From contig NC_083276.1 in assembly GCF_963506605.1 (NCBI RefSeq), positions 65,472,001 to 65,536,000 on the forward strand: a DNA stretch of 64,000 nt, given 5' to 3'. Positions 6,040-61,468 of this stretch are shown one piece after another (the stretch's first letter is position 1; each line of letters opens with the position of its first letter). This stretch comes from Zootoca vivipara (Eukaryota). The position numbers and the translations under genes are program-made. The notes below the pieces were generated by a model. That model worked only from the letters and a program-made list of their open reading frames with translations, was not told the origin of the DNA and ran no database searches.

Positions 6040-6256
6040 GACGGGGAACCAGGGAGCGCGGCACGGTGGGCGGGAATGCCGAACTCGCGCTCCGCTGGGC
6101 TGGGCTCCGCCTCCGCCCACCAGCCCTGCTTCTAGGGAGGGGCACAGCCCGGCGGAGCGCGAGTTCGCCGTTCCTGCCCACTTTGTGGCCCCTCCCCTTT
6201 CGTGCCTTGGCCCCTCCCCTTGCCCCCCCCTAGTTTTGATCCTGGGTACGCCCATG
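6040..6256. mobile_element. GC-rich non-autonomous hAT-like element, one end only
   Basis: Right end (cccactttgtggcccctcccc...tagttttgatcctgggtacgcccatg) is shared with the 12465-12775 copy; internal inverted repeat. Confidence 0.65.
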
Positions 6257-6390
6257 CCGTGGGGTACAGCAGCTTCCTCAGGCGGTGGAAACTGAAGAGA
6301 TGACGCCCACCTCACAGCTTCTGCCACCACCAGAGAAGCATCCAAGGTAAGGGAGATGTTGGCATTCGCAGAGTGACACAGCATTCTGCC

Positions 6391-6579
6391 AGTTACAGGT
6401 AGGTAGCCATGTTGGTCTGACGCAGTCAAAACAAAATAAAAAAAATCCTTCCAGTAGCACACTAGAGACCAACTAAGTTTGTCATTGATATGAGCTTTTA
6501 TGTGCATGCACATGAAAGCTCATACCTATGACAAACTTAGTTGGTCTCTAAGGTGCTACTGGAAGGATTTTTTTTATTT
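6391..6579. mobile_element. Penelope-like element fragment with fold-back inversion
   Basis: Homologous to 57694-57880; arms of about 73 bp (6434-6506 / 6507-6579) centred on TGTGCATGCACA. Confidence 0.8.
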
Positions 6580-7613
6580 AGCATTCGGCCACACAGTTTT
6601 GCCGCCAGTGGCAAAACTCAATGAGAGGGAAGCATTCCAAAAGTTTGCCCTCACACATCCCAGCAACACTTTGCAAGGGCTTTTCCATGAGTGGGAGGAG
6701 GATGTTTTGCTTCAGGCTCCAAAATGTTTTGGGCCACCTCTGACCTAAGACATTATGATGTTTTTTCCCCCAGGAAGGCAAGACCTGCCTGGGGCTTAAA
6801 GTGGCTCCAAGCAAATACTTTGTTCTGTCTTTTAACATTTTTAAGATTTACAATATCTTACAATATCTTAAAATTGATATTTAGTCTAACAAAATCTGAC
6901 CAATTAAATTTTATCCCAGTGGGATTATTGTGGCTCTTTTTTATGCATTTGTCTTTTTGTGTGACCGTGCTGATATTGTATTTTATCTGATTTTTTTGTC
7001 TGTCTTTTAATTTTTATTGACTAAATTGGTTTGCATCACATAGAGAACTAGGCAAACATGTGACTTATCAATGTAAACTGTAACAAACAATGCACCTGAC
7101 ATGTTAATGGAGACTCCGCTAAAGCTTTTGTTTTTATGTCACACCCTTCTTCAAGGCTTGTGACTGACAAGATTTATTGTTGCGTGAGCTTCTGTCTGAG
7201 GGCAACTAACCAATTACTTCATGTCTGTCAGGAGACATATTACACTAGCTGAGAGGAAAAGCCTTCTTAAAATGTTTCCCAAGACATCCTGAGCTCTACA
7301 TAACCTGTCACCTCCAAAACTGTTATACTTGCTTTTAACCTATAAATATCAAATCCTAACACTCTCCTGGGTGGGGAAGGAGACAGCTGAGTTAAGAAAT
7401 CTTTCATTTTTAAAACAGGGTATCGATCTCCAAGCAGAACTTTCAGCTCAATTCTCATGTGCTTGGCAATGTAAGGGTATTCTCGTCCCCGCAAGAGCTC
7501 ATAAGGTTAGGCTCTGATTGGATTAAAATGAGCTTGTCCCCATTCCTCAGTTCATGTAAAGGAGGAACAAAAGAAGTGTGTGGGGTTTAGGGGTGTTCCG
7601 TGCATGGAGGTAC

Positions 7614-7845
7614 TCTTCTCCTCATGAGAAGAGAAGACTCCCTGGAAAAGACCCTGATGTTGGGAAAGATGGAGGGCACAAGGAGAAGGGGACAACAGAG
7701 GACAAGATGGTTGGACAGTGTTCTCAAAGCTATCAACATGAGTCTGACCAAACTGCGGGAGGCAGTGGAAGACAGGAGTGCCTGGCGTGCTCTGGTCCAT
7801 GGGGTCACGAAGAGTCGGACACGACTAAACGACTAAACAACAACA
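7614..7845 (+). mobile_element. BovB LINE 3' fragment
   Basis: Encodes REDSLEKTLMLGK...WRALVHGVTKSRTRLND; (CAA)n tail; 14-bp TSD GTGCATGGAGGTAC at 7600-7613 and 7846-7859. Confidence 0.95.
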
Positions 7846-8289
7846 GTGCATGGAGGTACCTTTTCATGGTGCAACAGCAAGGCTCTGAAAGCAAAATTTC
7901 ACTATGCCATTCTCACTTTGTGCCTGTAGAGGGGAGTAGATAGCTATTTTATGATGCACCTCGCTCTACTTTTACCGTAGCTAATGAATCCTTGCCTTTC
8001 CATTGTAAAGCCTGAACTAAGGTCATTTATACAGGTGATGTTCAAATCCATTTTTCCCTACCTCTGAATGTCCACATCTATAATTTGCATATAATTCCTG
8101 CTTCCTGTCTCTCTTTAACAGCAGCAAAAGGTGACCCGTTTCATATATGGAGAGCCAGCATGCCAGAGGGAGAAAGTTTTTTCTGTCCACCATCTAGGCC
8201 AGAGAATGTTTCACTCTGTTCCTCCAAAGGCTGGTCCTTCCTCCCTCTGCAGTCCTTTAAAGGGGCTCCTATTACTGCTGAGGCTTTGT

Positions 8290-8582
8290 GACTTTCCAAA
8301 CAAATGCACAAAAAATGAACATCCAAGTTGCACACATTTTAATGCACTTTGCACGCATTCTTCTAATAAAATACTTTGTTTCAATGCCCTAAAATATATA
8401 CACATATGCATTTGCTAACACAAAATATGTTTTTGGTGTGTACATTATGGGATCTAAACTGCACCACAAACTCTGGAGAAGTGCATGATTGAACTGATAG
8501 TGTGTTCCAGTCTCCAAGCACATGCAGGGACACTGAATCAGGTTGGCTCACTGTGGATCAAACAAATTTCTCCCCCATCCCT
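8290..8582 (+). repeat. Old squamate interspersed repeat (approximate bounds)
   Basis: aaatgcacaaaaaatg...ctggagaagtgc pattern; an inverted homologue at 48170-48905 hosts the Helitron. Confidence 0.5.
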
Positions 8583-9747
8583 AGCAGAAATAAAACTGCA
8601 TGATGGGGAAGGAGCCAGCCTCCTCCCCACCCCTGTGCTTCAAATTGTCGCATCAGCAGCTACAAATCTGAAACGAAAACGAATCTCCAAACCATGCAAA
8701 ACTTCTTCGACTTTAAGATGCTAGAGCCAGGATCTCTTACTCGAAAGCAGCCTCACCAGTTTGTGAAGATGTGGTTTTTGGCCTCTGTTTTCCCCTTTCC
8801 CCCCGCTGCCATGAAGGCAGGAAAAATAGGAGGCAATTTCTTCTGTCCCAAACCACAATCACAAGCCAGCTTGGAATGTAAATATTTTACAAACTGTGTA
8901 GACCTGCTTTAGGATTCCAGAAATAAATAAAGGGCACTGAGATAAATATCTATATCTATCTATATCTATATGTTTATTTTCAAATGCAGGTTTGAGAATA
9001 GCTATCCACGGGCCTTTCCTCCCTCTAAGCCAAACATCCCTGGTAATGATGAGAGTGTGTTGAATCTCACTCTTAATGGCATGCACTTCAAATCATTCAA
9101 CCTGTACAGTATACTTAAATTACCAATTAACCCTCACAAAAAAAGATCAGGTCGGGTCAACGGAAAAGATCAAGGCTGTCTGGTCACTTCCATTACCACC
9201 ACGAAGCAATCAGGAATAAACCGACTGGCAGTTTTGTGACCTCTGCCCCCAAACAAAGGTCCCGTGCTTTGTGATTAATGGTTGTATGGTTCACCTTTTG
9301 TTCCCTGACAAGCAGCACTTAACCAGCTTTCATTTCATTTCTTTTTTGTATTCTGCTGATCAAGAACCTTCAAAAATGTGCCTTCCTGAGAAAGCTAGGA
9401 AAGAAAAATAAAATAAAAACAATTTCAGGAATTGGGGTGTGTTTTTTTTAAAGGTTCCAGAACTATGGGGGTTCTGGCTCATGATCTTGTCATCAGTTGC
9501 ATTTCATACTAAGAACCCATATGAATCAGACTACAGGTCTGTTTAATCCAACAGTCTGTTCCCAACCGTGGCCAATCTGCTGCCTATGGACAGTGTAAAA
9601 GCCAGGCATGAGTGCAGAAGCCATCCACTGATTGTGATTCACAGCAAGTGATATTCATATAGCCATCATGACTGTAGCCTCCCCCAATCCCCCCTTTAAA
9701 GCCATTTAAACTAGTAGCAGCCATCACCAAAATCCATCAATTAAGGC

Positions 9748-9830
9748 TGCAATCCTACACAGATTTATTTGGGAAGAAGTCTCATTGAACACAGTGGGGC
9801 TTACTTATAAATAAACATGCATAGGATTGG
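9748..9830. repeat. Short (about 85 bp) palindromic MITE-like repeat
   Basis: TGCAATCCTA...TAGGATTG termini; related copies at about 812-902, 17408-17468, 45137-45375 and 55418-55502. Confidence 0.7.
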
Positions 9831-10849
9831 GGTGTGATTATAAATTAATTGTGCTATCAGGATTTATAGCTGTAGTGTTGAAAATTTCAATGACTTTGCA
9901 TTTTGGTCATAGGCACATTTTACACGGCCATCTCTGCACACCTTTGGTTTTGAAAGATGAGGAGAGAAAGATGGCAATGTACTGTGTATTATACTCAATC
10001 TGAAGAAAATGGAAGGGGACACACTATGTGAGTGCATTGACCAAAGCATGGAAATCTGGGATTTATGACAGCATATATATATTTTTTTAAAGTCATCAAC
10101 TTCTTTAATTGATCATCATACTTGTTAACAATGATCAAGATGCATGCTTGACCAAATAACATATTGATTCATAAGAAAATGTGTATTAAGAATCTAAAAA
10201 TGTCTTTAACGGACACAAATATTTATTTATCATTAAGCAACAGCTATATATAACATCCAGATTAGTTGATGCGGAAATTTTGTGATTTGAAGTGTTTTTA
10301 GAACCTCAACCATCACAGGGATTATGCAGTGCTAAGTCACAATGTCTTGCCTGAGAATGATAGCTGTTAATTGCTTTCATGAATATGGATCTGAAAACTT
10401 GCCTACAACAGAAAGGTGCCATGCACTTAAAAATGTAGATTAGCCATGGGAGCAAAGGTAAATAAGTTCCCACTGGCATATTACTCTCTGAAGTAACAAA
10501 TATGTTTTATTAAGGGCAGCACAATTAATTGGAAGTCAAATATTACTGGGAATTTGACATTTTGATGTGAATATTCATTGGTATCCGATTCAATATATGG
10601 TTATGAACTCCTTCCCTGGCTGATTCCAATTTTGAGCCTATTTGACTGCAAGCCTATTTTTCACTTCTCCTTAGTACTCAAGGGCTGAGAGGTGTCAAAG
10701 ACCCATTATCATTTTTGCAGGAGGGTCCATGTCTCCAACATCCTACCAGCCACCCAATCAACATGAAACAGGAGCTTTCTAGCACCAGGGCAGTCTTTAC
10801 CATTTGAAGCAGGGGGTAAAAAATTGTGTCCTCCCTTAAAGAGGGCATG

Positions 10850-11178
10850 TGTTGCGGTGCCTGGCAACCAAATCCTTGTGAGGGGTTGTGCCCGTGCCTG
10901 AGTCCAGGGGAGCATCTGGGGGGGGGGGGGGTGTTAACAGAGTCTGTTCCCGGGCTTTTCACCTATCTCAGGTGTTCACCCTTGGCTGACCTATGATAGA
11001 GCTCTGGGTCAGCGCTACCTGCAACGGTGTAAGGAGCTAGTCGAACCAGAGCTGACGCAACCACTCGCTTGCTGTAATCAATCAAGTTGTGGCCTAAATT
11101 CTGCCGAAAACCAAACCAAAATTATGAGTCTTGAGTGAATTTATTTTAGGGGAAGGTTCAAAGGTCTGAACACGCAAA
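10850..11178 (+). mobile_element. Probable solo LTR (Gypsy-like)
   Basis: TGTTGCG...CGCAAA termini, possible 4-bp TSD CATG/CGTG; nested in a GC-rich element. Confidence 0.5.
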
Positions 11179-11693
11179 CGTGCTCCCCTGGGGCTGTTGT
11201 TGTTTTTGACAAGCAACATGGGCGTAGGCAGGGGGGCAGGAGGGGGCAGACCATAACCAGCACTTTTCCCCTCCAAAAACTGAAGTGGAAAAGGCTTTGC
11301 TTTAGCAAGAGCAGCTCAGTCTCCGCTTGCTGGGGGGGGGGGAACACAGCAGTAACAAAAACACATCAAATAAATAAAGCAAAGTGGCTGCCAGTAGTTA
11401 AGCAGTTAAGACAATGGAGCATATATCCCCAGGCAAGATTTGATAGCTGACCATTTCACCCTATTGTTCTTAAGTGGGACTTGTTAATGAGCATTCAGGA
11501 GCATTAAGAGTTCTATTGGCGATTTAATGAGGGTGCAGACTCAGAGGATTCAATTTGACTAAGGTGGCTCTGCAAGGCTAAAAGGAAGTGAATAAGAAAG
11601 GGGGGGGGCTGTAGCTTTGACAGACACAGTGATGTTTATAAAAAGCATTGGTGTTCCAGTCTGCCCCTCCTCCTGCATCTGTATACTGTAAAT

Positions 11694-12029
11694 CAGGGGT
11701 GGCCACCTCCCAAGAGACTCTGATCTACTCAGAGTTTAAAACTGGGGGTGATCTACCCCCTTTGGGGGGGTTCAGGTCAAAGCTGTTGAGTTTTTTTTAA
11801 AGGAAGGGAAGCCCTGTTTTGGGGGGTTTAGGTCAAACTTGTTGAGCTTCTTTTAGGAGGGAGGGAGGCCCATTTTTGTTTAGGGCTTCAGGTCATAGTT
11901 CAATTTTTTTGAGGGAGGAGGAAAATTTTGGGTGAGCTTTTTTTAGGGGTGCCAGTGACCTACTAGTGATCTACCACAGACATCCAGTGATCTACTGGTA
12001 GATCACAATCTACCTGTTGGACGTGCCTG
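11694..12029. mobile_element. Non-autonomous hAT (Charlie-like)
   Basis: CAGG...CCTG termini; perfect 8-bp TSD CTGTAAAT at 11686-11693 and 12030-12037; internal tandem ttcaggtcaaa repeats. Confidence 0.9.
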
Positions 12030-12357
12030 CTGTAAATCAAGCAGAGAGAAAGCTGCTTACAAGGCTCCTGTACATGCAGAGTTCCAGCATCACAGCGTCA
12101 CCCAGAGGCACCCACAAATATGAGTTATCCCTCTCTCTATTTCTTCCTTCCTTCCCTCCCTCTTCCATCCTTAATAAAATACGGGGGGCAGATAAGCCCC
12201 ACATAGAAAGCCCATCAACATGGGGGGATGACTCTTTCAAATACGGTATTTACCAGTAATTGGGGGGGGCACCTAGGCCTCTAGGAGTTGGATGCTATGC
12301 CTAGGAGTAGGACAATTCAAGAAAGCAGAATGATGCATATGCTATGGTAATATATCA

Positions 12358-12455
12358 ATAGAATCATAGAATTGTAGTCGGAAGGGACCACAAGGGTCAT
12401 CTAGTCCAACCCCCTGCAATGCAGGATTTTTTTCCTAAGGTGGGGCTTGAACCAT
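12358..12455 (-). mobile_element. tRNA-Lys/CR1-tail SINE, 3' part
   Basis: atagaatcatagaattgtag...ctagtccaaccccctgcaatgcagga...gtggggcttgaacc; same family as 60305-60440. Confidence 0.75.
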
Positions 12456-12464
12456 GGTTGAAAT

Positions 12465-12775
12465 ATTATGCTGATATGCAGCAACGCCTCGGAGCCGTCG
12501 TGGCTGCGGCCGTGTCTTGCCTCACCCTCGCCCGCCCTGCCACCCCCTCTCGCCTGCCCGACCCTCCCGTCCTCTCCAGCCAAGCAGGGTAGCCGCCAAC
12601 GCTACCAGCCCCAGAAGCACAAGGTGGCCGCTGCTGCCACCGCCACGATGTCATCAGGCCTGTTGGCCCTTTAGCCCCGCCCACTTTGTGGCCCCTCCCC
12701 TTCTGTGCCTTGTCCCCACCCCTGAACGACCATGGCTTCCCCCCCCCCCTAGTTTTGATCCTGGCTACGCCACTG
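12465..12775. mobile_element. GC-rich hAT-like element with unique interior
   Basis: Ends in GCTACGCCACTG (the TIR of the CAGTGGCGTAGC family); left TIR not seen. Confidence 0.7.
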
Positions 12776-14304
12776 ACAAGCAATTTGAAAATGGGGGTCA
12801 TGAAGGAGGTGTCCCTGGACCAAAAAAAAAAAAGCACACCAAATTTCAGACAAACATGTCCTGGGACAATTGTGCTTCTTTATTTTACCTTCATTATAGA
12901 AAAATGGAAAAGTCACCCTTTTCTCGTTCTTCCCTCCCCCTTTCCTGGAAGTGTTCTCTGTGAAGAAAAAGAGAGTGCTTTGGGGGTTCGCTGACACACC
13001 TTATTAATGGCGCAAACCAGCTCAGAGACATGAAAGCTTGTTCCAAATCAGCTGATTCACCTCATTCTGGGTATTTACAGAAGATGGAGAGAAAAATGAA
13101 GCTAGGAAAATATGGGTAACAATTGATTTGAGTACCACAATGGCATCTGCTTCGTGTATTTATATATTTTTAAAAGAAAACATCTGCTGTTGGGAAATTT
13201 GAAGTATTTTCCTTTCACTCCAGTTAGCTGTTGCCAGCGACTACTACACATTCACTACACAAACACTGGTTTTGTATTCTGACTAACAACAAAAGACGAC
13301 AGGAGCAATTCCACCAGTGCTATTTGGACTTGCAAACCATGGATAAGCATAGAGAATATTGTCATTCAACTGACATTTTCTACAGAAGCCGGTGAATCGG
13401 GTTACTGCAACACATATCCTAAGGTTTATATATTCAAGATTTCAAGGCTATTCTTTGTCTCTTGGTGATGCTTTACACTGTGGTTTCCTCAATAGAGATA
13501 TATTTATCATAGGATTTTGATGAGAAAAGACCTGTCTGTTTCACACACACACACACACACACAGGAACTATGCCAATTTCTTCTATTTCTTCTAGCAGCG
13601 ATGCTAAAGAGCTAAAGCATTGGAATGCCATTTTTATCATTAGTAAATGACATGTTACTTACAGGTGCTAATACTGAAGTCCTGGTGATTTTTAAAATGA
13701 AAAGCAGCTGGGATTCGGAAACACAGGAGTGGGGTGGGTGGGGGTGCTTAACTGTTTTCTCATCAGTCATTTTTCCCCGTTAAAAATCACTCCTCTGGCT
13801 GGTTCCCCCCACCCCCACCATCCAACAAGAGTCCCAGTATATGTTAACAGGTGATTGATTTATATAAGCTCACAACTCTAGGTTCCTATTTTTTAAAAAA
13901 AATCGTGTCTATGAGAACAGTGGCTTATACGATGACTTCATCACATATCAGAAAGGTTATGATGACAAACAGAATTCTCTCTACCATAATAGCCCCCGGA
14001 GAGCTACAGTGAGTCAGGAGAGATTACGTGCTCCCAGAAGTATATAAAGGTTCACAGGCAGAATTCAACTAAACAACTGCGTGAGAAGAATGATGTCCAC
14101 TTATGCAATGGGACTTTCCCACCCTAGAACAGATTTAGGGTGGAAGAGAGGGGGAGATCATTCTGTTGCACAAGGAAAAATCTGTGTGGTGATGGAACAT
14201 TAGCCGTAGTGCTACAATGAAGTCTTCCCACAGAGTAGAATGAGATGCTCATATCTAGTGCTAAAACAAAGTACAGTACCTAATATGCTCCAGTCTGCTG
14301 TCAC

Positions 14305-14640
14305 AAATGTTGCTATGGGGGGTGCGGAGAAAGGGGGTGCAGTAGGGGTGGTCTGCCCTGGGTGTCACCACTGAGGGGCGGTGACAAAATGCCGGGTGGC
14401 CCTCACTGCGGGGCCTGCAGCACGCCTGAGCCACGCATCTCTCCTGCGAGTGACGCAGTGGCTTGGGTGACCGTAGACTCCACGATGCCCCAAACGGTCC
14501 ACCCACTGCCTGCCCCACAGCTGTAGGGGGCTGAGTGGGAGGAGGCTCCTCAGAGGCCCCGTGGAGTGTCTTGCCCCGATTGGCCCTGCCCCTGGGTGCA
14601 GGGTACATGTGCCACCCCAGGTGCCCGACTGGCTTGCTCT
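14305..14640. mobile_element. GC-rich DNA-transposon-like element
   Basis: Reverse-complement homologue of 26123-26444 (gggtgtcaccactgagggg..tgacaaaatgccgg). Confidence 0.65.
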
Positions 14641-15024
14641 TGAGCGGGGGGAGACTCTAATCCAGCACCAGGAGTATGGGTGTGGGGTCTCTTGCACCGT
14701 GTTTTTGCCACCAAGTAAGGCCTACCAGTTTGGCTTGCGCCAAGTGCTCCCTTCTCTTCTCAGTAGGCGATTAGCAGTGAGGATCTCTCTTCTCTGCGGA
14801 GAGAGTACTGCTGTTCATCACTTTCCACAAAAAGAGGTCTCAAAGCGACTTACAAATCCATAAAATTCAAAACACCTTGATAATCAATTAAAAGCCAAAT
14901 CCATAGAAAAAGATATAACAGAATCCCCCCCCAAAAGTGTCCACCCAACAATAACAATAAAAAGGATAACTTTTTATTCTGACTGACACCTAATTCTGAC
15001 TGACAACAAAAGATGACAGGAGCA

Positions 15025-15521
15025 TGGGGGGCTCTGGGGCGAGGGGGAGGGGGGAGGGCAAACCCAATTATAAAATGAACCACCCTCGACTGCCTGCCTT
15101 CATGGGACTTGCTCGTGGCAGGAGGGGTCCTGTGGGAGGGGGGATTGGAAGAAGGTGGAAATAGGTTATGAATATTTTGTTTTTCCTTTTTATATTTTTC
15201 TTTTTTCCTTTTTTACTCTTTTTGGGGTGGTGGTTTTGGGATTCTTTATTTTTCTTTTTTGGATAAATGGTTGGGTGGACATTCCCCTGACTTCTCCCTT
15301 GTTTTTCTAGAGCTCCCTGGTGGCAGGGGGGGCTTTGGGGCGGGGAAGAGGGGAGGAGGACAAACCCAGTTCTAAAATGGACCACCCTCAACTGCCTACC
15401 TTCATGGGACTCACTCGTGGCAGGAGGAGCCTGTGGAGGGAGAGTTGGAAGAGGGTGTAAATATGTTATGTATAATTTGTTTTTTATTCTGAAAAATTTA
15501 ATAAAAAAATTTATATAAAAA
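15025..15521 (+). mobile_element. 5'-truncated poly(A) retroposon (L1-like 3' UTR) with an internal duplication
   Basis: AATAAA at 15500 plus A-tail; 17-bp TSD AAAAGATGACAGGAGCA at 15008-15024 and 15522-15538; a unit of about 120 bp is repeated at about 15060 and 15362. Confidence 0.8.
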
Positions 15522-26122: not shown

Positions 26123-26444
26123 TGGAGGAAGCCGCTCGGGCGCCTGGGGCGGCGCGCCCAGGGGCAGGGCGTGCCGCCCATAGGGGCGGGGTAAGCACCA
26201 CAGGGCCTCCCAAGTCTCCCTGCCTCCTCCCACTCAGCTGCCCTACAGCAGGGGGAGGCAGGGGGCGGACCGTTTGGGCAGCATGGAGCCTGTGTGCGCT
26301 CAAGCCATCGCGTCTCTCCCAGGGGAGATGCATGGTTCGGGCGTGCTGCAGGCCCCACAGTGAGTGCCGACCGGCATTTTGTCATCCCCTCAGTGGTGAC
26401 ACCCGGGACAGCCCGCACCCACTGTCCCGCTTCCTCCAGCCCTG
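26123..26444. mobile_element. GC-rich hAT-like element abutting BovB
   Basis: Inverted termini GGAGGAAGC / GCTTCCTCCAGCCCTG; homologous to 14305-14640. Confidence 0.65.
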
Positions 26445-26448
26445 CTAA

Positions 26449-27810
26449 CTCTCCTCCGCTATTTGTAAGGCCTCGTTGGACAGCCATTTTGCTTTCTTGC
26501 ATTTCCTTTTCCTTGGGATGGTTTTCGTTGCTGCCTCCTGTATAATGTTACGAGCCTCCATCCATAGTTCTTCAGGCACTCTGTCCACCAAATCTAAATC
26601 CTTAAACCTGTTCCTCACTTCCACTGTGTATTCATAAGGGATTTGATTCAGATTGTATCTTACTGGCCCAGTGGTTTTTCCTACTTTCTTCAGTTTAAGC
26701 TGGAATTTTGCTATAAGAAGCTGATGATCTGAGTTACAGTCAGCTCCAGGTCTTGTTTTTGCTGATTGTATAGAGCTTCTCCATCTTTGGCTGCAGAGAA
26801 TATAATCAATCTGATTTCGATGCTGCCCATTTGGTGATATCCATGTGTAGAGTCGTCTCTTGTGTTGTTGGAAGAGAGTGTTTGTGATGACCAGCTTGTT
26901 CTCTTGACAGAACTCTATTAGCCTTTGCCCTGCTTCATTTTGAACTCCAAGGCCAAACTTGCCAGTTGTTCCTTTTATCTCTTGATTCCCTACTTTAGCA
27001 TTCCAATCCCCTGTAATGAGAAGAACATCCTTCTTTGGTGTCATTTCTAGAAGGTGTTGTAGGTCTTCATAGAATTGGTCAATTTCACTTTCTTCAGCTC
27101 CGGTAGTTGGTGCATAAACTTGGATTACTGTGATGTTAAAAGGTCTGCCTTGGATTCGTATCGAGATCATTCTGTCATTTTTGAGATTGCATCCCATTAC
27201 AGCTTTTGCCACTCTTTTGTTGACTATGAGGGCCACTCCATTTCTACTACAGGATTCTTGCCCACAGTAGTAGATACGATAGTCACCCGAACTGAATTCG
27301 CCCATTCCCTTCCATTTTAGTTCACTGATGCCCAGGATGTCGATATTTATTCTTGTCATCTCATTTTTGACCACATCCAGCTTACCTCCACTCATGGTTC
27401 TTACATTCCAGGTTCCTATGCAATATTTTTCTTTACAGCATCGGACTTTCCTTTCGCTTCCAGGCATATCCGCAACTGAGCGTCCTTTCGGCTTTGGCCC
27501 AGCCGCTTCATCAGCTCTGAATCTACTTGTACTTGTCCTCCGCTCTTCCTCAGTAGCATGTTGGACGCCTTCCGACCTGAGGGGCTCATCTTCCAGCGTC
27601 ATAACTTTTATATGCCTGTTGTCTTTGTCCATGGAGTTTTCTTGGCAGGGATACGAGTGGCTTGCCAGTTCCTTCTCCAGGTGGATCACGTTTAGTCAAA
27701 ACTCTCCACTATGACCTGTCCATCTTGGGTGGCCCTGCATGGCATAGCTCATAGCTTCTCTGAGTTATTCAAGCCCCTTCGCCACGACAAGGCATTGATC
27801 CATGAAGGGG
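26449..27810 (-). mobile_element. BovB (RTE clade) LINE, 5' 1.36 kb including the APE endonuclease; 3' part absent
   Basis: Uninterrupted 414-codon ORF with CIGTWNVR, ILGISELKW, QVYAPT, GDWNAKVG, NQIDYIL, SDHQLL; BovB-type 5' end CCCCTTCATGGATC..GCCTTGTCGTGGCGAAGGGGCTTG. Confidence 0.95.
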
Positions 27811-32151: not shown

Positions 32152-32624
32152 CAGTGGCATAGCCCCAGGCACAAATTTCTGAGGGGGTACAACCGGGCAC
32201 CCTAATGACAGGCTCCTCATCGAGGCTGGAGCCGTTGGGAGGCAAGCTGCAACTGGGCCAGGCCTTCAAGGCTGGTGCAGTGGCACGTCCTTATCCTCAT
32301 GGCCGGCAAAGGAAGGCCCTCACACTCCCCGCCCCTGGCCGGTTGAGAGGGAGAGCAGCAGCGGCACCCAACAAGGAGGAAGGGAAGAAAAGGCAATCAG
32401 GAAACACTTCAGGAGCCATGTGCATTGCCCAAAGGATAGGAGGATGAGGTGACACAGCAGCGCTCCTGGCTTCTCATTTCTCTAACTTATCTCTTCTCCC
32501 AGGTTGGGGCTAGTCTACCCTTGAGTAGACAGTGGCCGGCGAAGGGGCTGATCACTGGCCAGTCCACAAGGGGGGCACAACACTTGTCCCGTCCCAGGTA
32601 CCAGCAACCCATGCTACGCCCCTG
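32152..32624. mobile_element. GC-rich non-autonomous hAT
   Basis: CAGTGGCATAGC...GCTACGCCCCTG TIRs; 8-bp TSD GGTGGGGG at 32144-32151 and 32625-32632. Confidence 0.88.
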
Positions 32625-34614: not shown

Positions 34615-34810
34615 CAGGGCTGTCTTAAGCATATCGGGCACCCTGGTGCTGTGGTGCGAAGATCGCTCCGGCGCGCCCCCCCACAGTTTCCCGCCGCGGC
34701 TGTCTGGCGGGCACAGCACTACTGCAGCGGGCGCAGCCGTGCGGCGCCCCCCAGGTGGCCCGGCGCCCTGGTGCCCTGCGCCACCCAGCCTTGCCTTAGA
34801 GCCGGCCCTG
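34615..34810. mobile_element. GC-rich non-autonomous hAT (cargo-free relative of 61065-61468)
   Basis: CAGGGCTGTC...GCCGGCCCTG TIRs; perfect TSD GTTGTAAC at 34607-34614 and 34811-34818. Confidence 0.9.
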
Positions 34811-41892: not shown

Positions 41893-42420
41893 CAGTGGCA
41901 TAGCAAGGGGGCGTAGGGGGCAGTTCGCACCAGGTGCCACCCTGGAGAGGGGGTGACACTCAGCGCGCCCCCTGCGAGCGAGCAGCCAGCCACCGCCCAG
42001 TAAAAAGCCTCGCTTGGAGGCTGGCTGCTCACTCACTTGTTTGGCCGGTGCACTTTGCTTCTTCCTGCTGGGGCGGAAGCAAGGGGTGGGCCAAAGAGAC
42101 ATGCGATATGCAAAGAGATATGGCGGCCACTGACACCCCTCCCTGGCCCGCCCCTTGCCTCCACCCCAGCAGGAAGAAGCAAAGCATGCCAGCCGAGCAA
42201 ATGAGAGAGCAGCCAGCCGCCAAGCAAGGCTTTTTTTAAAAAAAAAACTTAGCTCCGCGGCTTGCTCACAGTTTGCTCCAGTGATCCTCTGTGATCCCAG
42301 CGCTGGAGCGCTGCCGTCGGCAACCCACTCCATACAGCGCATGCACCATAGCGGCACGACGCATGCGCCATATGGAGCGGGTTGCCGCTCCGGGTGCCCC
42401 AAGAACTAGCTACGCCGCTG
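41893..42420. mobile_element. GC-rich non-autonomous hAT with internal inverted repeats
   Basis: CAGTGGCATAGC...GCTACGCCGCTG TIRs; perfect TSD AACAGAAC at 41885-41892 and 42421-42428. Confidence 0.92.
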
Positions 42421-51245: not shown

Positions 51246-51412
51246 TGCAAAGAGGTCAGAGGCTGCAGGTAGGAAAAGACTGTTCCTTGAGTGTGTTAAA
51301 TTTAAAGAAGACCTGTTGGCATTTGAGAATGGAAAAGAAAGGTCATGTGTTCCTCAGAATCCCTTTCCATAACATATTTAATTTAAATCAGTCAATTGTT
51401 TCCATGTAAACA

Positions 51413-52103
51413 ATGGAAAGAAGCAAAAATCCCAGTAAAGGTAGGTGAAGGTAAAGGGACCCCTGACCATTAGGTCCAGTCGTGACCGACTCTGGGGCTG
51501 CGGTGCTCATCTCACTCCATTGGCTGAGGGAGCTGGCATACAGCTTCCAGGTCATGTGGCCAGCATGACTAAGCCGCTTCTGGTGAAACCAGAGCAACAC
51601 ACAGAAACGTCGTTTACCTTCCCGGTGTAGTGGTACCTATTTATCTACTTGCACTTTGACGTGCTTTCAAACTGCTAGGTGGGCAGGAGCTGGGACTGAG
51701 CAACAGGAGCTCACCCATTGAATGGATCCCAACAGAAAGGTAGAATGGATCCCAAAACTTACAGAATATGCAGAAACAGTGAAACTTACAGGAAGAATAA
51801 GAAATCGAGTTAACAAACATTTTATAAAAGAATGGAAATGGTTTTTTGAATATTTACAGATAAATTGTAAACAGATAAAAAACATTAGCTGTATTATTGT
51901 AACAACCTGTAGTTTTAAAAGAGTTTATATTTACAGATAATTATATGAGCAAGTTAAATTAATTTGGATATGCAGAAGATATTAACAAATTTAAGGAAAC
52001 ACAGAAAGAGGGGGAAGAAAGTCAAATGCTGAGATGTTAAATTGATTGTAAAACTAATGAAAATGTATAAATTTGACAAGTATAAATAAAAAACTAGAAA
52101 AAA
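51413..52103 (+). mobile_element. 5'-truncated L1 containing a truncated Sauria SINE (51436-51720, - strand)
   Basis: 15-bp TSD GTTTCCATGTAAACA at 51398-51412 and 52104-52118; EWIPKLTEYAE..FIKEWKWFFEYL; AATAAA plus A-tail. Confidence 0.85.
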
Positions 52104-55100
52104 GTTTCCATGTAAACACCAAAAGCTTCACACTAGCCATTTATCAGCCTAGTATTTCTGAATAAAGAAATGTTCAGTTGACTTCACCAATTAAATTCCT
52201 CTGGATTGTGGCATGGCAGCAGTCCCATTAATATTCAGTAACACACAGATCTCTCCAATATTTCTGGGGCCAATGGTCCATTATCAAAACTGAAGTTTAA
52301 AATGAACCTGTCCGAAGGATCTCCACTGGTTATAAAATTACAGTTCGGCCCTTAACTGTAACTTGGAGATAAATCTAAAGGCATTTCGAGCTATTTTTAG
52401 ACCTATTTAATACCAACTTATTCCCCTGACATGAGCGTAGCCATCTGTCAGATTCCTTCTGGAGCTCAGAAATCAAATGTATAGCTAATTTAGAAATTGC
52501 AGGCTACATTATGACCTCTGTATAATGACATGCCACATCTCTGGTAACTCATTTAAAAGTAACATCCTATTGATATTACATAATAGCATTAATCTCCCCC
52601 CGCCCCCAATATGTGAGGGATGGGAAGTGAAGCTTTGAATCAGAATCCACAGAGCTGCTTAGACCCATGGAACAGTGCCAGCCCTAGACATTTTCCTGCG
52701 CTATTCCCATCTAGGGCAAACAATTTAAAATGCGCTTTTCCAAGGCGGCGCCCGTGGGCACCAGTATGACCACCGATACTTCCCATGGTACCCACCAAAA
52801 GGTCTCAGTAAATATTTCCCCAGAAATTTACAAGACACAAGAGACCGCTTGTTGTTTCTGCTCAGTTCCTGTTTTCATTGGCTCAGCCTCTCCTCCATTG
52901 AACACCCCATTCCTTAAGTATGCCCACATTTCATTAGAAGTCCACCCTTGCAACTATTCTTCTCTCACACAAGACAGATGAAGACACCTTCTCTCCATGG
53001 GAATGGCAATGCCTTTCCTCCCCATTTATGGGCCAGCTGACATACGCTATCTTTAATAATCAACTACCTTTATTAACATTTTTTATAGTTGGAAAATATC
53101 TAAAATATGAAGGGATTGATACTAGAGATAGCAGCACTATGAGAAAGTGGTGCTTGCCTCATTTATTTCAGAAGAAGCAACCAGACCCACCTAGAATCAT
53201 AGGGTTGGAAAGAGCCACAAGAGTCATCTTGACATTCCCGAATTGACTCATATCAGTCTGCCACAGGTAAGGGACAGGACCCTTTGTTGAGGCCCACCTG
53301 AAGCGCTTATTTGCTGACACCCTGAGTTGCAGTTTCAGGCCTCAGGAGCATTTTGCAGTGCAGCCAGTGTTTGAGGCTTGACCATTTAATTATTCCGTTT
53401 ATCAGGAGTTGAATCTGACATGATGCTTTTGAGAGCAGCACACTCAAGGGGCGGTGTGTTCTTGCCTGTGGCGCCACTTGCCGTCAATACTTTTTCTTGT
53501 GCCTAAAACAGCCATGTTGAGTGTTGCATCTTTTAAAAATGAAATTCATTTAAAGAGTGTCATAGTTCAATCAAGGTGCCCATCCTTTTCAGCCAATGTA
53601 CATTCTGCTTCTCATATCAGTATCTTTGATTTGCTTCCCCCACTCAAAAAAACCCCCACCCCATAAGAGGAGTATAGTAGAAATCTGACAGATAATGTAC
53701 AGAAAGCGAATTGCTGAGTCTTTTGTGAATTATACAATGGAATCCCAGAGCCATGTCTTCAGAAGCTCTTGACACCATGGGAGGCCTTGAAAGTCTAGAC
53801 TCAAAGGACTTTTATATTTTGGAAATACTTTGCTCTGTTCTGTGCCTTTCTTTCCTTATACATAGCAGGGCTTGAAAGTGGAAAGTAAATACTCCTGTAA
53901 CCGAATGAACAAGGCTCCGAGCCCAGAAGTAGCAGATCGGGTTTTGATTATTATGAAGCATTCTGTCGATATGAAACATTTTCTTCCCTTCAGTTGTCTG
54001 CATTTGGGAGCCGGTTCTGCTGCTTTGGGCCACTCCTTTTGAAGGCCCCATCTGGACAATACATTTAAAGCAGTATCATACCACTTTAAACAGCAATGGC
54101 TTCCCCCAAAGAGTCCTGGGAATTGTAGTTTGATAAGGATACTGAGACTCATTAAAGGTAAAGGTAAAGGATCCAACAACCAGGCCTTGTGTTGTGGGTG
54201 GGATTATTGGAGCATTATTGGTGGTCCCTCAAATCCGGGAGCAATTGGGCTAGTGGGATGCCAATCAAAACAATTCAAGGGACCAATACTTAAGTGCTGC
54301 ACTTGGCCCAGAGCTTCCTCTTTCGGGCCTCTGTGCATCAGTACCACACCTGTGTGTTCGCTGCCAACCCGAAAGAAACACCAATCCTTCGAGGAAAGCA
54401 GTCTACAAACAGAGACGGTGATTCATTTCAATTTTCCCTTACTGTCCTTTCCCTGGTTTAATTTTCCTTGGCTTAATTCCTTCCTTTTTCGTTAAATTTT
54501 CTCTCCCCCACAACCCCTTCCGACCCCCCCCCTTTCCCTTAGCTCGGTAGGGCCTTTGGCCTGGGGGGGGGTTCTCCCCCTTCCACATTTAGCTCGGATT
54601 TTACCTCTCAATTTATTTACTTCTCAATTTATCTGATGTTTGTTTGGTTTGGGGTTGGGGTTTGTTTGTTTGTTTTCATTTATCTAGGCCAGCATTTTCT
54701 ACACTGGCTGGCAGCAGCTTTTCAACTCTCATCCAGGGAGTGTTCCAAGCCATTGCCAACAGGAAATGACCAGGACTGATATAGGGGGATTTTTGATGTG
54801 AATGCATGTGTTCAACCACCTAGCAACGATTCCTCACATGAAGACACAGGGAATTGGCCTGGCTTGCCACCAGCACACCACACTGACAGATGTCTTCTTG
54901 CATAGCAAGTTTAGAGAGTGATGATGAAAGAAAGCAAACTTTTGACTGATGTCGCAAACTGTCTCTAAGGAGATTCAGTTTCAAGCCTTTCATGTCATTT
55001 TACAATGGGAAAAGATGTTATTTCAGAAACGTTATGTAATCCATTTATTGTCTCCATTGTTCGGGTAGCAGTACTGGAGTGTTATTACTTTTTAGAACAT

Positions 55101-55554
55101 GTTTTCAAGAGTGGCGCTATCAATTCCAAATGACAAAGCTGGAAGTCTATCACAATCTGCATTCAAAGGCTGTGTGGAACAAGTATTGTGAGGGGCAGAC
55201 CAAGCTCAGAAGCCAGGGAAATTGAATCTAATTCTCAGCTATGTTCTCCATCACCATCTTCGCGGGGAAATTGAGGCACCAAACCACTTTTCTCACGGTA
55301 CTACCAAGAATAATAAGCATCTGGATGCTTCATGGCACTCGCACAAGGGATGCAGTTGCAAATGTAGAAACCTCATTTGCAGAGCGCTGTAACACCGGCA
55401 CCCACAGAACAGAAATTTGCAATCCTACGTGTGGCTTTTCAGAAGTAGATCTCATTGATTTCAATGAGATTTACTCCCAGTTTAAGATGGTATAGGATTG
55501 CAGCCAGGGATTTTGAGAGGGAAACATGTACTGTAGCGCCAATAGCTAATCACT

Positions 55555-55755
55555 AAGGTCACATCCACTAAGGCCACATTTAAAGCACCATGACACCACT
55601 TTGAACAGTCATGGCTTCTGCCAAAGAATTCGGAGAGCTGTCGTTTATTAAGGATGCTGAGATTTGTCAGGAGACCCCTATACTCCTCCTAGATTTACAA
55701 TTCCCAGGATGGTTCAACAGTCAATCCCTCTTCACAAGGAACTCTGCGAGTTGTA
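55555..55755 (+). repeat. Abundant squamate interspersed repeat
   Basis: cacatttaaagca..ccacttt.aacagtcatggctt..ccaaagaat motif; other copies at about 25945-26060, 50960-51125 and 54050-54150. Confidence 0.65.
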
Positions 55756-55949
55756 GGAAAAAAGAGAGAAGATAAACAAAATGCCAGAATTTTTTTATCT
55801 AAAGATATAGTTTAGAGCCAAACAAGCGTTTACAATGTACAGATCTGTATGAGGAAGAATTATGCTAACGAGATAGAGATGTGCTTTCTTTATCTTAAGA
55901 AATATTAGTGAAATCATGCTCTTGATGTGTTCAGGATCTAATATAGGTA

Positions 55950-56297
55950 AAGGTAAAGGAACCCCTGACCATTAGGTCCAGTCGTGACCAACTCTGGGGT
56001 TGCAGTCCTTATCTCGCTCTATTGGCCAAGGGAGCCGGCGTACAGCTTTCAGGTCATGTGGCCAGCATGACTAAGCCGCCTCTGGCGAACCAAGCAGTGC
56101 ACGGAAATGCAGTTTACCTTCCCGCCGGAGCGGTACCTATTTATCTACTTGTACTTTGACGTGCTTTCGAAGTGCTAGATTGGAAGGAGCAGGGAACGAG
56201 CAACAGGAGCTCACCCCACCGCGGGGATTCAAACAGCCGACCTTCTGATCGGCAAGCCCGAGGCTCTGTGGTTTAACCCACAGTGCCACCCGCATCC
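55950..56297 (-). mobile_element. Sauria SINE, full length
   Basis: (ACCTTT)n tail; TSD CTAATATAGGTA at 55938-55949 and 56307-56318. Confidence 0.95.
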
Positions 56298-56885
56298 AAT
56301 TCCTACCTAATATAGGTAGGAATGATCAAATGTATTTATTTACACTCTCGTTATATACACCCTCAAGGGTGATGCTTACTCTTGTAATTATCAATGGTTT
56401 TTATTTGTTTGTTGTGATATTTATTTATGTGTTATTTAATTTATATACCACCCTATACCCAGAGGTCTCAGGGCAGTTCACAGAACAAAATCAGAATATT
56501 AAACCATAAAATATATAATCAAAATAAAAACAACAACCCAATAAGCTCCCCGTATAGAAATATTCTGTTCTGACAATAATAAATAAAAGTTTTAAAAACT
56601 TTTTTTAAAAGTGTGAATTAAGTGGAATTAAAATGCAAACTGAACTTATTTCTCTCCTAACACTGCCATTAGCCGAAAGACACCGTTGGATACAATGCCT
56701 ACATTGTAATCTGTCACAGTGTAGTACCCTTATCCACTGTGAGGTAAACATGATGTCATACTTAACCTGAAGAGTTTCTGTTGGGAAGGCACTTATTTGT
56801 GCCTCAGACGCTCAGGTGTTTAAAGAGAAGTAGGGGTTTTTTTCCCCTTCTGGGAAGGAAGAACCCTCAAATTTAACAGATATAC

Positions 56886-56950
56886 CTGCTTTCTGTGGAG
56901 CCTGCTGTGTACCTTTTCCAGATCAATGTGCTGAATCATAGAAGGAGCTT
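56886..56950 (-). CDS. Candidate exon (65 nt, phase 1-0)
   Basis: tgtcttaatttctgtag acceptor, CAG|GTATAT donor; open frame APSMIQHIDLEKVHSRLHRKQ. Confidence 0.25.
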
Positions 56951-57693
56951 CTACAGAAATTAAGACACTCAGAGTGATCATAGTAGTTCTACAATTTACC
57001 ACAGAATACACTAAGGAACCGGGAGAGGCAGCTATATTAAAGAAGCTGGATATTGCACTCCAATTTAAATCAAAACAATAATCTCTAAGCTTCTAAAACA
57101 GAGTTTCCATAGTAACATGTCTTCAAGTATGGGAATATGCATCCATAAATAAGTCATTTTAAGAATGTTCAGTCTCTTTTTTTTCATTCAGAGAAGCATC
57201 CATATTCAGGTTCTAATTCACAGCTCAAGTAGCCCCACAGCTCAAGTGGTGTGGAACTGACACTCACAGCATAGTCTTTATTCACAAAACACTGCACTCT
57301 TCCCTCAGATACTTTAATTTATTCAAGTAAACAATATAAGCAGCTTTTGAAATTCTGTAGCATGTTAATACAAATTTTCAGGACCTTTACAACCTTTCAA
57401 TAAATCTAAGGGCTGAGTGAAGTTTTACATATTTGGGTAGGCTTGTCTAAGCAAAAAATGTTTCTTTTAGCAGACAGAGAAAAGGATACAGTGAAGGAAC
57501 CTGCCTGAGATCAATAGGCAGGGAGTTCAAAGGTGTAGATGCTGCCACACTAAAATATCTATTTCTTATAAATGCAGAATGAGTATGATGTGGCAGCTGT
57601 AGCAGTGCCAGTTCTGCAGCGTGAAGCAGCCAACTGGGCATGTGCACCAATACGCTTTTAAATTTATGCTTAAGAAATCTAGTACAATGAGGT

Positions 57694-57880
57694 AGTTACA
57701 GGTAGGTAGCCGTTTTGGTCTGACGTGGTAAAAACAAAAAATAAAAAATTCCTTCCTGTAGCACCTTAGAGACCAACTAAGTTTGTCATAGGTATGAGCT
57801 TTCGTGTGCATGCACACTTCTTCAGATACACTGAAACAGAAGTCAGCAGACCCTTATGTATAGTCAGAAGGTGGGGAGTA
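57694..57880 (-). mobile_element. Penelope-like element terminal (pLTR) fragment
   Basis: gttacaggtaggtagccg..ggtctg, gtagcaccttagagaccaactaag motifs; contains a minimal hammerhead. Confidence 0.82.
57792..57829 (-). ncRNA. Minimal type I hammerhead ribozyme (PLE-type)
   Basis: GUAU CUGAAGA A GUGUGC AU GCACAC GAAA GCUC AUAC: both catalytic core boxes, stem I GUAU/AUAC, stem II, palindromic AGCU loop III, CUC cleavage triplet. Confidence 0.75.
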
Positions 57881-58404
57881 CAATGTGGTGTTTGCCTTTT
57901 TAATACAGATCGTTCGCATCTTACGTCCATTTAGCTCACACAATTTCAACCATATTCCATTGAGGGTTGGCTGGCTGAAGTTCTGCGAGTTAAGTGTAAG
58001 CAAAGCAGAGAGCTTAAAAGCTCTTTTTGCACTGGGCTTTCAGGGCACAAAAAGAGCTTTAGAGTTCTCTGCCTTGCTTGGGAAGCAAAGCCCTCTTGGC
58101 ACACTGGTTCTGGGATGTTCTTCCGTGATTTCACGGGGCTGCCTGAGTTCCCATAAAATCTTGCACAAGCATCCCTAGTCTTCTGGAGCCAGCACACCAA
58201 GAGGGCCTTACCCCCAAGCAAGGCAGAGTGCTTAAAAGTTCTTTCTACGCTGGGTCTGCTTGAGTTACCAAATACCTTTGGCACCAAATATCTGACGAAA
58301 TGCCTGCTTCCATCACAACCAATCCAAATGAAAAGAGCCTCTGTTAGTGGCAGGTATAAGAAGGGCTTCTGTGCGATGGCCCCTAGATCACAAAATTATC
58401 CTAC

Positions 58405-58488
58405 CTTCTGCAGGGCGTTTTACACCATCATAAATGTCCATCCCTGCAGTCTTGTGCTCAAGTCTTTTTGTCTCTTCAGGAAATGACA
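58405..58488 (-). CDS. Candidate exon (84 nt, phase 1-1)
   Basis: ttttgtctccccttttcaag acceptor, AAG|GTAGGA donor; only open frame SFPEETKRLEHKTAGMDIYDGVKRPAE. Confidence 0.35.
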
Positions 58489-59624
58489 CTTGAAAAGGGG
58501 AGACAAAACTCAGATATCCGAAGAACAGGGGTGTGGGGAGAGCAGTGGGGAGAAATCCCCCCTGAAAGAAATACACAGCTACTTTTTTTGCTTCTCTGTT
58601 GCCTTTCTAATAATGCCCTGAGAGTTAGAGGTCTCCTAACTAGCAGTTCGAAAGCACGTCTCTATTATGTGTCCTTTGAAGATGGCCACAGATTAAGTGT
58701 TCAGCACTTACATACTAAGATGTGTGGGGTTTTTTCTTTTGACAGAAGGCTCATCATTTGTGCCCAAACACCGCACAACACACACAGTCGTGTTTGGGAA
58801 AGAATACATTGGAGTTCTTAGCATAAATCACTCAGAGGTAAAATCTAGGGCATGATCTAGTGAAAAGCAAGAAGACTTAAATCTGCTGGTTGCAATGGGA
58901 GAGATTTAAGTGTGTGCTGAGGTCTCCCTCTGAAATTTTTGGCATTGCTCGGAGCCTGGTTTTGGTTAGAGCCTGACTTCATAATTCAATCCTTTTGCGG
59001 ATTATTTGGGCTAGCCTTTGATGTACTCTCGGTGGAAGAGCAGCTTCCATACAAATAAAAACGGATGGCGCCAGAGGCATAGCCTAAGTAGTGCAACTTG
59101 AAGCAGCTCTCAGATTAGAAAGGTACGCATTCTTGCTTCACTTGGTTTTACAGGGTTTTGCTTTCATGAAAACTCCTTGAGTGGTGTTGCAGTAAGTGCT
59201 TCTCCTGCACCCTGCAAGCCACAGCGGATACATAAAATTATCCAGCAATATGACAGACATTTATTTTAAAGAAGGAGCAGCTTTTGTCCATTCATTTCCT
59301 CTTTCTCCTGCCTGATAGAACTGGCATGCCAATGATGTGCTTTTATATTGTGTCCATGTAGCTGCAATTCAGTATCTGGCCAGCTACAAAATGCCATTGC
59401 CTCCATTTCTCCCGTGTGCACCAATATGAATAAAAAATCAGAAAGAAAGGGAAGAGCATTCGGAAAGAAACATTTCCCACATCCTGCCTTCTCACAGGAA
59501 GCTTTTAACCTGCTTCCCCCCGCCCCCACCCGAGAGCAATCTCTTTTCATTGCATAACTACCTTTGCAATTCTGGGACACGGCTGAACTGCAGCTTTTCA
59601 TGTTCCCTGGAGGCATAGGAAGCA

Positions 59625-60183
59625 ACGGTCCCAATTCTAGGCTGCATCAACAGAAGTATGGCATCCAGAACACGGGAAGTAACTGTGTCACCCTATTTTG
59701 TCTTGATCAGACCTCACCTGGAGTACTGTGTCCGGTTCTGGGCACCTCAATTTAATAAGCAGTATAGCGAGTTGGAATGTGTGCAGAGGAGGGATGACAA
59801 AGGATCTGGATACAAAGACTTATAAGGAACAGTTGAGGAAACTGGGTATGTTATACCTTGGAGAAAGAAGGACTGAGGGGTGATATGACAGGGCTGTCAA
59901 ATGGAAGATGAAGTAAGCTTGTTTTCTGCTGCTCCAGAGGGTAGGACCCAAACTAATGGATTCAAGTCACAAGAAAGGGGATTCTGACTCAACACCAGGG
60001 AGAACTTTCTGATGGTAAGAGCTGTTTGAAAGTGGAACAAACTACTTCATAGGGTAATGGAGTCTCCTTCATTGGAGATTTTTAAATAGAGCCCTACGTT
60101 GGGGAAAAGATTCCTACATTGAAAGGGCTTGGACTAGATAATCCTTGGGGTCCCTTCAAACTCTACAATGCTATGATTCTATG
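59625..60183 (+). mobile_element. CR1 3' fragment fused to a SINE-type 3' half
   Basis: [23 protein letters not shown]1 motifs to about 60085, then gagccctacgttgggg..attcctacattg and a tatgattctatg tail. Confidence 0.8.
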
Positions 60184-60304
60184 AAAGGAAGGCACTTCTC
60201 TTCATCCCAGGATACCCTGGTAAAAAGCTAGTCATCTGGGTGGCACATGACTGGCTTCCATTGGCTGGAAGGTCTAGAGAAGGATTTTTATTTTATTTTT
60301 TGGA

Positions 60305-60440
60305 GAATCTTAGTACAGTAGTAGAATCATGAGGGCCATCAAATCCAACCGCCTTCAATGCAGGATTTTTTTTGCCCAGTGTGGGGCTCAAACCCACAAC
60401 CCTGAGATTTGGAGTCTCATACTCTACCAACTGAACTATC
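60305..60440 (-). mobile_element. tRNA-Lys-derived SINE with CR1 tail (POM/Squam1-type)
   Basis: Reverse complement reads gatagttcagttggtagagtatgagactc..atctcagggttgtgggtttgagccccacactgggca. Confidence 0.8.
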
Positions 60441-60931
60441 AGAGACTACTATTGAAGTTAGCCACTCAGATCCTCACTCCAATTTCCAACTTGTTCCGTG
60501 ATAACAATGAGAGGCTTATTATCTTTTTATTGTTTCCACTAAAAGTATGGACAATTTTCACTTTACTATAATAAACATATTATAGTCACATACCCTCCAG
60601 GTTCCTAAAGTAACCAGTGCAAGAACAAATACATATTAAAATACACATAACTGCATATAACTGTACTGTATTTGCATAAGTGCAGATGCTTCTGCATTCA
60701 TACTTATAAAATGATGCTGCAAAACTATTATTAGTATTATTGATAAAATTTGTATACTGCCCTCCGTCTGGAAATCTCTGGGTGGTTGACCGCATACAAA
60801 GACAAGATAAAAATTGCAAAATTCATCATATAAACAAGAACAAAAGCAAAGCAATAATGCCCCTACCCCCTCCCAAAACACGTTTAAAAGGCATGCCCAT
60901 ATAAATGCTTATATCCATTTTGTTGTTGACA

Positions 60932-61057
60932 GACAGGTAGCTCAGCCAGTAGAGCATGAGACTCTTAATCTCAGGGCCGTGGGTTTGATTCCTGCATTGT
61001 AGGGGGCTGGACTACATGACCGCGATGGCCCCTTCCAACTCTACAATTCTATGATTC
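60932..61057 (+). mobile_element. tRNA-Lys(CTT)-derived SINE with CR1 tail
   Basis: TAGCTCAGCCAGTAGAGCATGAGACTCTTAATCTCAGGG head; ttccaactctacaattctatgattc tail. Confidence 0.85.
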
Positions 61058-61064
61058 TTCAGCG

Positions 61065-61468
61065 CAGGCCCGTCCCTACGCCGCCGCCCCCCAACTCACC
61101 GCGGACGCAGAGGAGGGACATGGCATGGGCAGGCCGGGCGCTGAGGGTGGGCCGGGCTCAGGGGCGCCGCAGCAGGTGGGCCGGGCACCTGGTTGTCCTC
61201 CGGGGCACCAGCAGCGCCACCTCCTCCTGCACGGAGGCCTCTGCTGCGGGGGCAGTGCCGCGCAGTGCCCGGCCTCTCGTCCTCCTCATGCCCCTGGCAA
61301 CCCACCAGGCTGAGGCCAGGACTCGAACCTGCGGTGGGAGGGAGGGAGGCAAGAAGCAGGGCGAGCAGGAGGGCGGCCGGGCTGTCTGGCGGGCGCAGTG
61401 TGGCAGCTCCTGGCGGCCCAGCGCCCTGGCGCATTGCGCCACCCAGCCTTGCCTTAGGGCCGGCCCTG
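61065..61468. mobile_element. GC-rich non-autonomous hAT carrying captured host sequence (Pack-TIR-like)
   Basis: CAGGCCCGTCCCTA...TAGGGCCGGCCCTG TIRs; TSD CTTCAGCG (61057-61064) / CTTCAGTG (61469-61476); right 90 bp shared with 34615-34810. Confidence 0.85.
61094..61124 (-). pseudogene. UNC13B: Captured copy of a UNC13B (Munc13-2)-type first coding exon end
   Basis: gcc ATG TCC CTC CTC TGC GTC CGC G|GTGAGT = MSLLCVR + phase-1 donor after 22 coding nt, matching the recalled N-terminus and exon-1 boundary of UNC13B. Confidence 0.75.

Follow-up and report, generated by a model that had tools for sequence, protein, structure and literature searches.

The 64,000-nucleotide window analysed here, from the lizard Zootoca vivipara (G000:C1:65472001-65536000), contains eight GC-rich patches that had been read from the sequence alone as one family of hAT transposons repeatedly capturing promoter and first-exon fragments of host genes. 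In searches over the 1.44-Gb, 48-contig genome, the patches proved to be copies of seven high-copy non-autonomous hAT families, whose interiors are family-wide and not one-off captures. It is very likely that the ends of these families match those of transposase-coding elements, and that at least one of them, the 61065 family (families are named here after the window position at which the element starts), carries a copy of exon 1 DNA of the host gene UNC13B that was captured once and then multiplied by an autonomous partner. To this extent a Pack-hAT system, with host gene DNA lying between hAT ends, does exist in part, but it is not established as the general pattern for the GC-rich hAT families of this lizard.

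The majority sequence of the 61065 family, read on the minus strand, runs from a GC-rich leader through a start codon and the codons for MSLLCVR to a donor site beside the end junction. The captured piece comprises the 5' untranslated region (UTR), the first 22 coding bases and the splice donor of UNC13B exon 1. This sequence was recognised as an UNC13 start and then tested against the genome, where MUN-domain exons were found on C6, C11 and C14. The C6 paralogue equals Munc13-1 at 48/48 residues and the C11 paralogue is not identical; by what is established for the family, C11, with its C2A exons, is taken to be UNC13B and C14 to be UNC13C. The parent of the captured piece lies at G000:C11:62964667-62964953, with 81.7% identity to the 61065 majority over 317 columns with gaps counted (E 1e-86), and is the sole match of any of the families in a 200-kb stretch that lies upstream of the MUN exons on C11. 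The site is a CpG island (80 CpG in its bin), and no element-end sequence was found within ~5 kb on either side. The parental exon 1 continues in frame into exons 2 and 3, the latter matching the Munc13 C2A structure (2CJT, E 8e-15); a 20-amino-acid (aa) read of exon 1 into the intron gave no PDB match.

All 30 fetched copies match this parent at 75.6-81.3% with gaps, or 85% counting substitutions only. When only substitutions are counted, divergence from the family majority is 10.2% for the parent and 6.1% for the copies, and CpGs retained in the parent are lost in the copies. The start codon is intact in 19 and the donor GT in 22 of the 23 copies that were aligned. A pattern search from start to donor returned 86 places, namely the UNC13B gene and 85 copies. 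The family has at least 85 copies and probably ~150 in all, since the pattern is present in 22 of 39 known copies; the estimate agrees with the 154 candidates obtained with a 61-nt exon-end query. Like a multicopy Pack-TIR (TIR, terminal inverted repeat), the family combines ends on both sides of a non-transposon interior, an end-less parent and target duplications that differ between copies. At the promoter-side junction 3 nt agree with subterminal sequence of the 34615 type, and at the intron side there is a G-rich match. The cargo is not retroposed: donor and intron bases are kept, and there is no exon 2 and no poly-A. As the UNC13B piece keeps these bases and the AP4E1 piece described below keeps the upstream promoter, capture occurred at the DNA level. 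Separately, one copy carrying UNC13B exon 1 was seen at G000:C10:16622863, between MUN-domain exons of a gene on C10 and on the same strand.

Two sister captures were recovered outside the window, where new interiors were sought by collecting end-bounded elements from 1.58 Mb of sequence. The element at L329:114-653 is a Pack-hAT with 6040/11217-type ends, its cargo being the promoter and most of exon 1 of AP4E1, and it has two sub-families. The interior gave ~49 candidates in the genome; hAT ends were present in 29 of the 30 fetched loci and absent from one. This end-less parent (L389, G000:C14:11898523-11898896; 84.9% over 377 columns) matches human AP4E1 residues 1-50 (9U9I, E 4e-9), and the following exons lie downstream. 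L329-type elements are chimeric, joining the AP4E1 piece to the module that forms the 6040 interior, and one sub-family adds a second, tandemly repeated cargo. A third interior (L483:1426-2149), likewise of a family with 6040/11217 ends, occurs at four places, three with ends and one without. The latter (L520, G000:C4:47498584-47499028; 89% over 441 nt) is a CpG-rich single-copy site, the frame of which has no Pfam match. All three traced parents are CpG-rich, having been hand-picked for their gene-start look. Other end-bounded elements with different GC-rich interiors were noted at L186:2090-2355, L236:1058-1588 and L156:1257-1437.

The eight GC-rich stretches with hAT-type ends exist as the sequence-only reading had described them: their GC content is 0.59-0.75, all are copies of repeat families, and short imperfect terminal inverted repeats beginning CAG/CAT were confirmed. 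They also constitute most CpG-rich islands of the window, as had been claimed: of the 10 bins of 500 nt that hold 16 or more CpG, 6 belong to them, as do all 5 that hold 22 or more. The proposed single family dissolved into seven families with four end types. The element placed at 12465-12775 represents no more than the right-hand fifth of one that spans 1559 nt (11217-12775); two further elements are true, but their bounds needed revision, as 6040-6256 lacks the left 173 nt and 26123-26444 lacks ~8 nt of one end. Where four clean 8-bp target duplications had been reported, perfect ones surround 32152, 34615, 41893 and the corrected 11217-12775, but the one around 61065 has one mismatch. The interiors of 34615 and 61065, said to differ completely, have ~65 nt in common at one end and ~115 nt at the other.

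Every whole-element search gave family copies among the 40 candidates scored per family; the candidate totals, which are not copy numbers, were 3668 for 11217, 2904 for 34615, 1915 for 26123, 1769 for 61065, 1238 for 6040, 995 for 41893 and 151 for 32152. Full-length copies were flanked by 8-bp duplications in 23/30 cases for 61065, 21/25 for 34615, 27/30 for 11217 and 24/24 for 6040, with the duplications of these four families differing between copies, and in 16/25 cases for 26123, 6/25 for 32152 and 11/30 for 41893. As each interior recurs across the copies of its family, capture did not take place copy by copy, as had been supposed, but likely once per family, followed by amplification.

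Transposase partners were sought via DUF4371, which gave 13 loci. A 5586-nt element (L204) has both 6040/11217 ends and a 591-aa frame with DUF4371 and Dimer_Tnp_hAT, and L208 shares these ends. At L205 (G000:C7:80407505-80409715), an intact-looking 737-aa frame with the same two domains is accompanied by the 6040/11217 right end; the left end was looked for at this locus and not found. L205 is a candidate for recent activity. L209 and L215 match one 34615/61065 end, and L207 and L212 match one 32152 end. The suggested check for an autonomous transposase sharing the terminal repeats thus yielded coding hATs with matching ends for three of the four end types. These transposases may belong to the Tip100/hATx branch. 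Only the outermost 34-79 nt resemble the partners; the interiors therefore did not arise by deletion from those found.

A single template switch in the course of repair or replication is the likely way in which UNC13B exon 1 was captured, and this switch may have been guided by the microhomology at the promoter side (3 nt) and the intron side (G-rich). Mobilisation would have occurred in trans, by DUF4371/Dimer_Tnp_hAT elements whose ends match. Later remodelling of the elements may have involved foldback, tandem duplication, nested insertion and module swaps between families. Most likely, the copies are neutral passengers decaying through CpG loss.

The strongest competing account holds that these are ordinary MITEs (miniature transposable elements with inverted repeats), the interiors of which are deletion remnants or self-made foldbacks of subterminal hAT DNA that is rich in GC, the host having contributed nothing. 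As a general account we consider it unlikely, although a number of observations speak for it and weigh against host capture. All interiors are high-copy family sequence, those of 6040 and 41893 being internal repeats and palindromes and 34615 consisting almost solely of end sequence. The left subterminal region of the autonomous element is itself CpG-rich, and modules are common to several transposon families, with that of 6040 found also inside a MITE with other ends. End-less parents were found for none of six of the seven window families (the 26123 and 34615 interiors had no separate search), evidence for the 34615/61065 partner comes down to a single end at two decayed loci, and the 13 DUF4371 loci include no partner for the 26123/41893 ends. 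In addition, the second cargo of the AP4E1 family (120-170 nt) occurs at five GC-rich loci without hAT ends (L477, L484-L487), the ends of which we take to be of rolling-circle type; because of this cargo and the sharing of the 6040 module, some GC-rich interiors may stem from other transposons. The sequence-only reading had named a lack of host parental loci as what would count against it. End-less host parents exist for the 61065 family and the two sister families, where they refute the ordinary-MITE account, and no interior matches the partners found or derives from them by deletion. For 34615 that account is the likely one, and it may also hold for as many as five further families. The proposed capture of promoters and first exons is therefore borne out by the UNC13B parent of 61065 and by the AP4E1 and C4 parents of the sister families, but only one of the seven window families has been traced. 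As to host-derived interiors in general, 34615 holds little beyond end sequence, much of the interior of 6040, 41893 and 11217 is foldback or tandem duplication, and some interior sequence occurs also in other transposon families.

Two further explanations accept the link between element and gene and differ in its direction or route. An element copy might have been domesticated as exon 1 of UNC13B (and of AP4E1), to which we give next to no credence: the parents have neither ends nor end remnants, the AP4E1 exon matches human residues 1-50, UNC13B exon 1 opens a frame running into conserved C2A exons, and the parent retains CpGs that the copies lose. Capture via RNA or another mobile element, either as a retrocopy into a MITE or by hand-over from a rolling-circle element, would account for the one AP4E1-family cargo common to elements whose ends are presumably rolling-circle-type. 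It is nevertheless improbable in view of the donor and intron bases kept by the UNC13B piece, which has no exon 2 or poly-A, the DNA upstream of the likely start site in the AP4E1 piece, the microhomology of the junctions with end sequence, and the hAT ends in 29/30 AP4E1 loci and 30/30 UNC13B-family loci.

For direct capture of host DNA by hAT elements, the blanks among the remaining families carry little weight, because in large families the search can miss the true parent, as a positive control showed: when 40 of the 154 candidates for the 61-nt 61065 exon-end query were scored, the known UNC13B parent was not recovered. For 11217, neither a junction-negation pattern (28 loci) nor an older-subfamily query (30/40 loci) gave a parent, as every locus retains some portion of an end. 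Searches with the arm of 41893 (40 of 507 candidates scored, every one with mirrored arms), with the 6040 module (34 loci) and with its older, longer form (30/40 loci) likewise revealed no parent. None was found for 32152; two seemingly end-less matches were rejected as decayed copies. Host exons were not recognised in the 20 of 69 long window frames scanned, one of which is a long interspersed nuclear element (LINE) endonuclease, and the long frame of the older 6040-type family had no match in Pfam or the protein atlas. The donor-like sites of 26123 and 41893 and the acceptor-like site of 32152 might hint at a gene origin and are suggestive only. Among the interiors with no traced parent, some are likely older captures and others derived from transposons.

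The multicopy Pack-TIR is a known kind of element; the lizard case is new in copy number, in repeated capture within one lineage and in clade. In the portions of Tan et al. 2021 (PMC8277862) drawn on here, four multicopy Pack-TIR families are given among 370, with 3-5 copies and an example with three; Pack-hAT-N8_XT carries 291 bp of the CAPSL 5' UTR, and the only lizard surveyed there has 0 Pack-TIRs and 0 annotated hATs. There, parent identity of at least 90% is a detection cut-off for young cases and no defining property, and the 61065 family falls below this filter (75.6-81.3% with gaps, 85% by substitutions only). Like those families, the lizard elements have two hAT ends, ~290-430 bp of GC-rich 5' gene DNA, a distant end-less parent, target duplications that differ per copy and junction microhomology. 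Unlike them, they reach at least 85 (~150) copies for UNC13B and ~49 for AP4E1 versus 3-5, are older (76-82% with gaps), and show several captures in a single end lineage and chimeric, folded-back interiors. The hobo-N and orphan hAT-N families of Anolis (Novick et al. 2011, PMC3014272) likewise have similar ends with family-specific middles, filler DNA with fragments of other transposons and recombination between families, a pattern that 11217 fits closely. The ends there are of the hobo TAGGCTTG type (Table 1 of that paper), and the text drawn on neither names a gene parent nor describes cargo from promoters or first exons. In plants, Pack-MULEs and Pack-TYPE elements (PMC5861414, PMC8903248, as summarised in PMC8277862) are similar in their preference for GC-rich 5' gene pieces, their multi-source chimeras and their distant parents; unlike Pack-MULEs, the present elements are vertebrate hATs with few captures, each amplified to many copies. 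Our literature search, with subscription papers and repeat databases outside its scope, found no UNC13B or AP4E1 capture and no squamate Pack-hAT beyond Novick 2011.

A UNC13B start is carried at ~150 sites, against 3-5 copies in each of the four published vertebrate families of multicopy Pack-TIRs, and no fewer than two additional host pieces, both CpG-rich, were captured by the 6040/11217 end lineage. It is conceivable, though we rather doubt it, that most GC-rich hAT MITE families of this lizard are high-copy Packs of host promoters and first exons, with thousands of CpG islands, start codons and donors transposed and some acting as new first exons. If true, rice Pack-MULEs would have a vertebrate equivalent of similar scale. 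Standard pipelines overlook such cases, since they label old high-copy Packs simply as MITEs. The families make it possible to ask in a reptile if new CpG islands and alternative first exons arise from cut-and-paste elements, and if the parent promoters are reached by small RNAs or methylation directed against copies.

Table 1. Features of the window, with positions counted from its first nucleotide.
Position	Strand	Feature	Target duplication
6042..6256	+	Young 388-nt element, right portion only (left 173 nt missing); copies 97-99% alike; 11217 end lineage	
11217..12775	+	Young composite non-autonomous hAT, 1559 nt	Perfect, 8 bp
11694..12027	+	Nested hAT MITE of a different end type, inside the 11217 element	Own 8-bp duplication
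12075..12575	+	500-nt internal unit, 2-3 tandem repeats in many 11217-family copies; 6-nt microhomology joint	
12356..12455	-	LINE 3' tail fragment inside the 11217 element	
14305..14640	+	Decayed copy of the 332-nt family, inverted relative to 26123	
26123..26444	-	Copy of the 332-nt family, ~8 nt clipped at one end; donor-like site by the end junction	
32152..32624	+	Old lower-copy family, matches 65-85%; internal acceptor-like site	Perfect, 8 bp
34615..34810	+	~197-nt high-copy element of the 61065 end lineage, nearly all end and subterminal sequence	Perfect, 8 bp
41893..42420	+	Mirrored promoter-like interior (42002-42235); donor-like site	Perfect, 8 bp
61065..61468	-	Pack-hAT with UNC13B exon 1; family ~437 nt, this copy without ~39 nt near 61072	8 bp, one mismatch
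61094..61382	-	Captured UNC13B piece; start codon 61121-61119, seven codons MSLLCVR, donor GT 61099-61098	

The 11217 family has at least 381 copies, on average 1.0% from the majority. The element is mostly AT-rich DNA, with no repeats elsewhere in the 0.83 Mb sampled, and is CpG-rich only in its last 310 nt; the LINE tail within it is presumably CR1-like. Some copies of the family have lost the nested MITE by excision that left footprints. Among the 53 rows listed, seven distinct copies (L220, L251, L261, L263, L266, L267, L271) lack it, with five different junctions, which fits a passenger element that was excised again and again, and in L252 another MITE occupies its footprint. A tandem array on C19 (L225-L232, G000:C19:39.66-39.72 Mb) consists of ~8-kb units, each with an 11217-family copy broken near the left end. 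Public contigs of three other organisms cover, within 11150-12850, only the nested MITE, the LINE tail and ~11525-11731, the last nearly without differences; those of one other organism cover the 11217 element piecewise. Contigs show neither starts nor expression, and no conclusion is drawn from them.

The 41893 family has its left 69 nt in common with the 26123 family. Beside the 26123 element, a 416-aa LINE endonuclease frame (26445-27695, minus strand) stops exactly where the element ends. The interior of the 6040 element consists of a single GC-rich module repeated in direct and inverted orientation; this module also occurs in the AP4E1-carrying family. Ahead of the clipped 6040 copy, at 5956-6039, ~39 nt of flanking DNA are directly duplicated.

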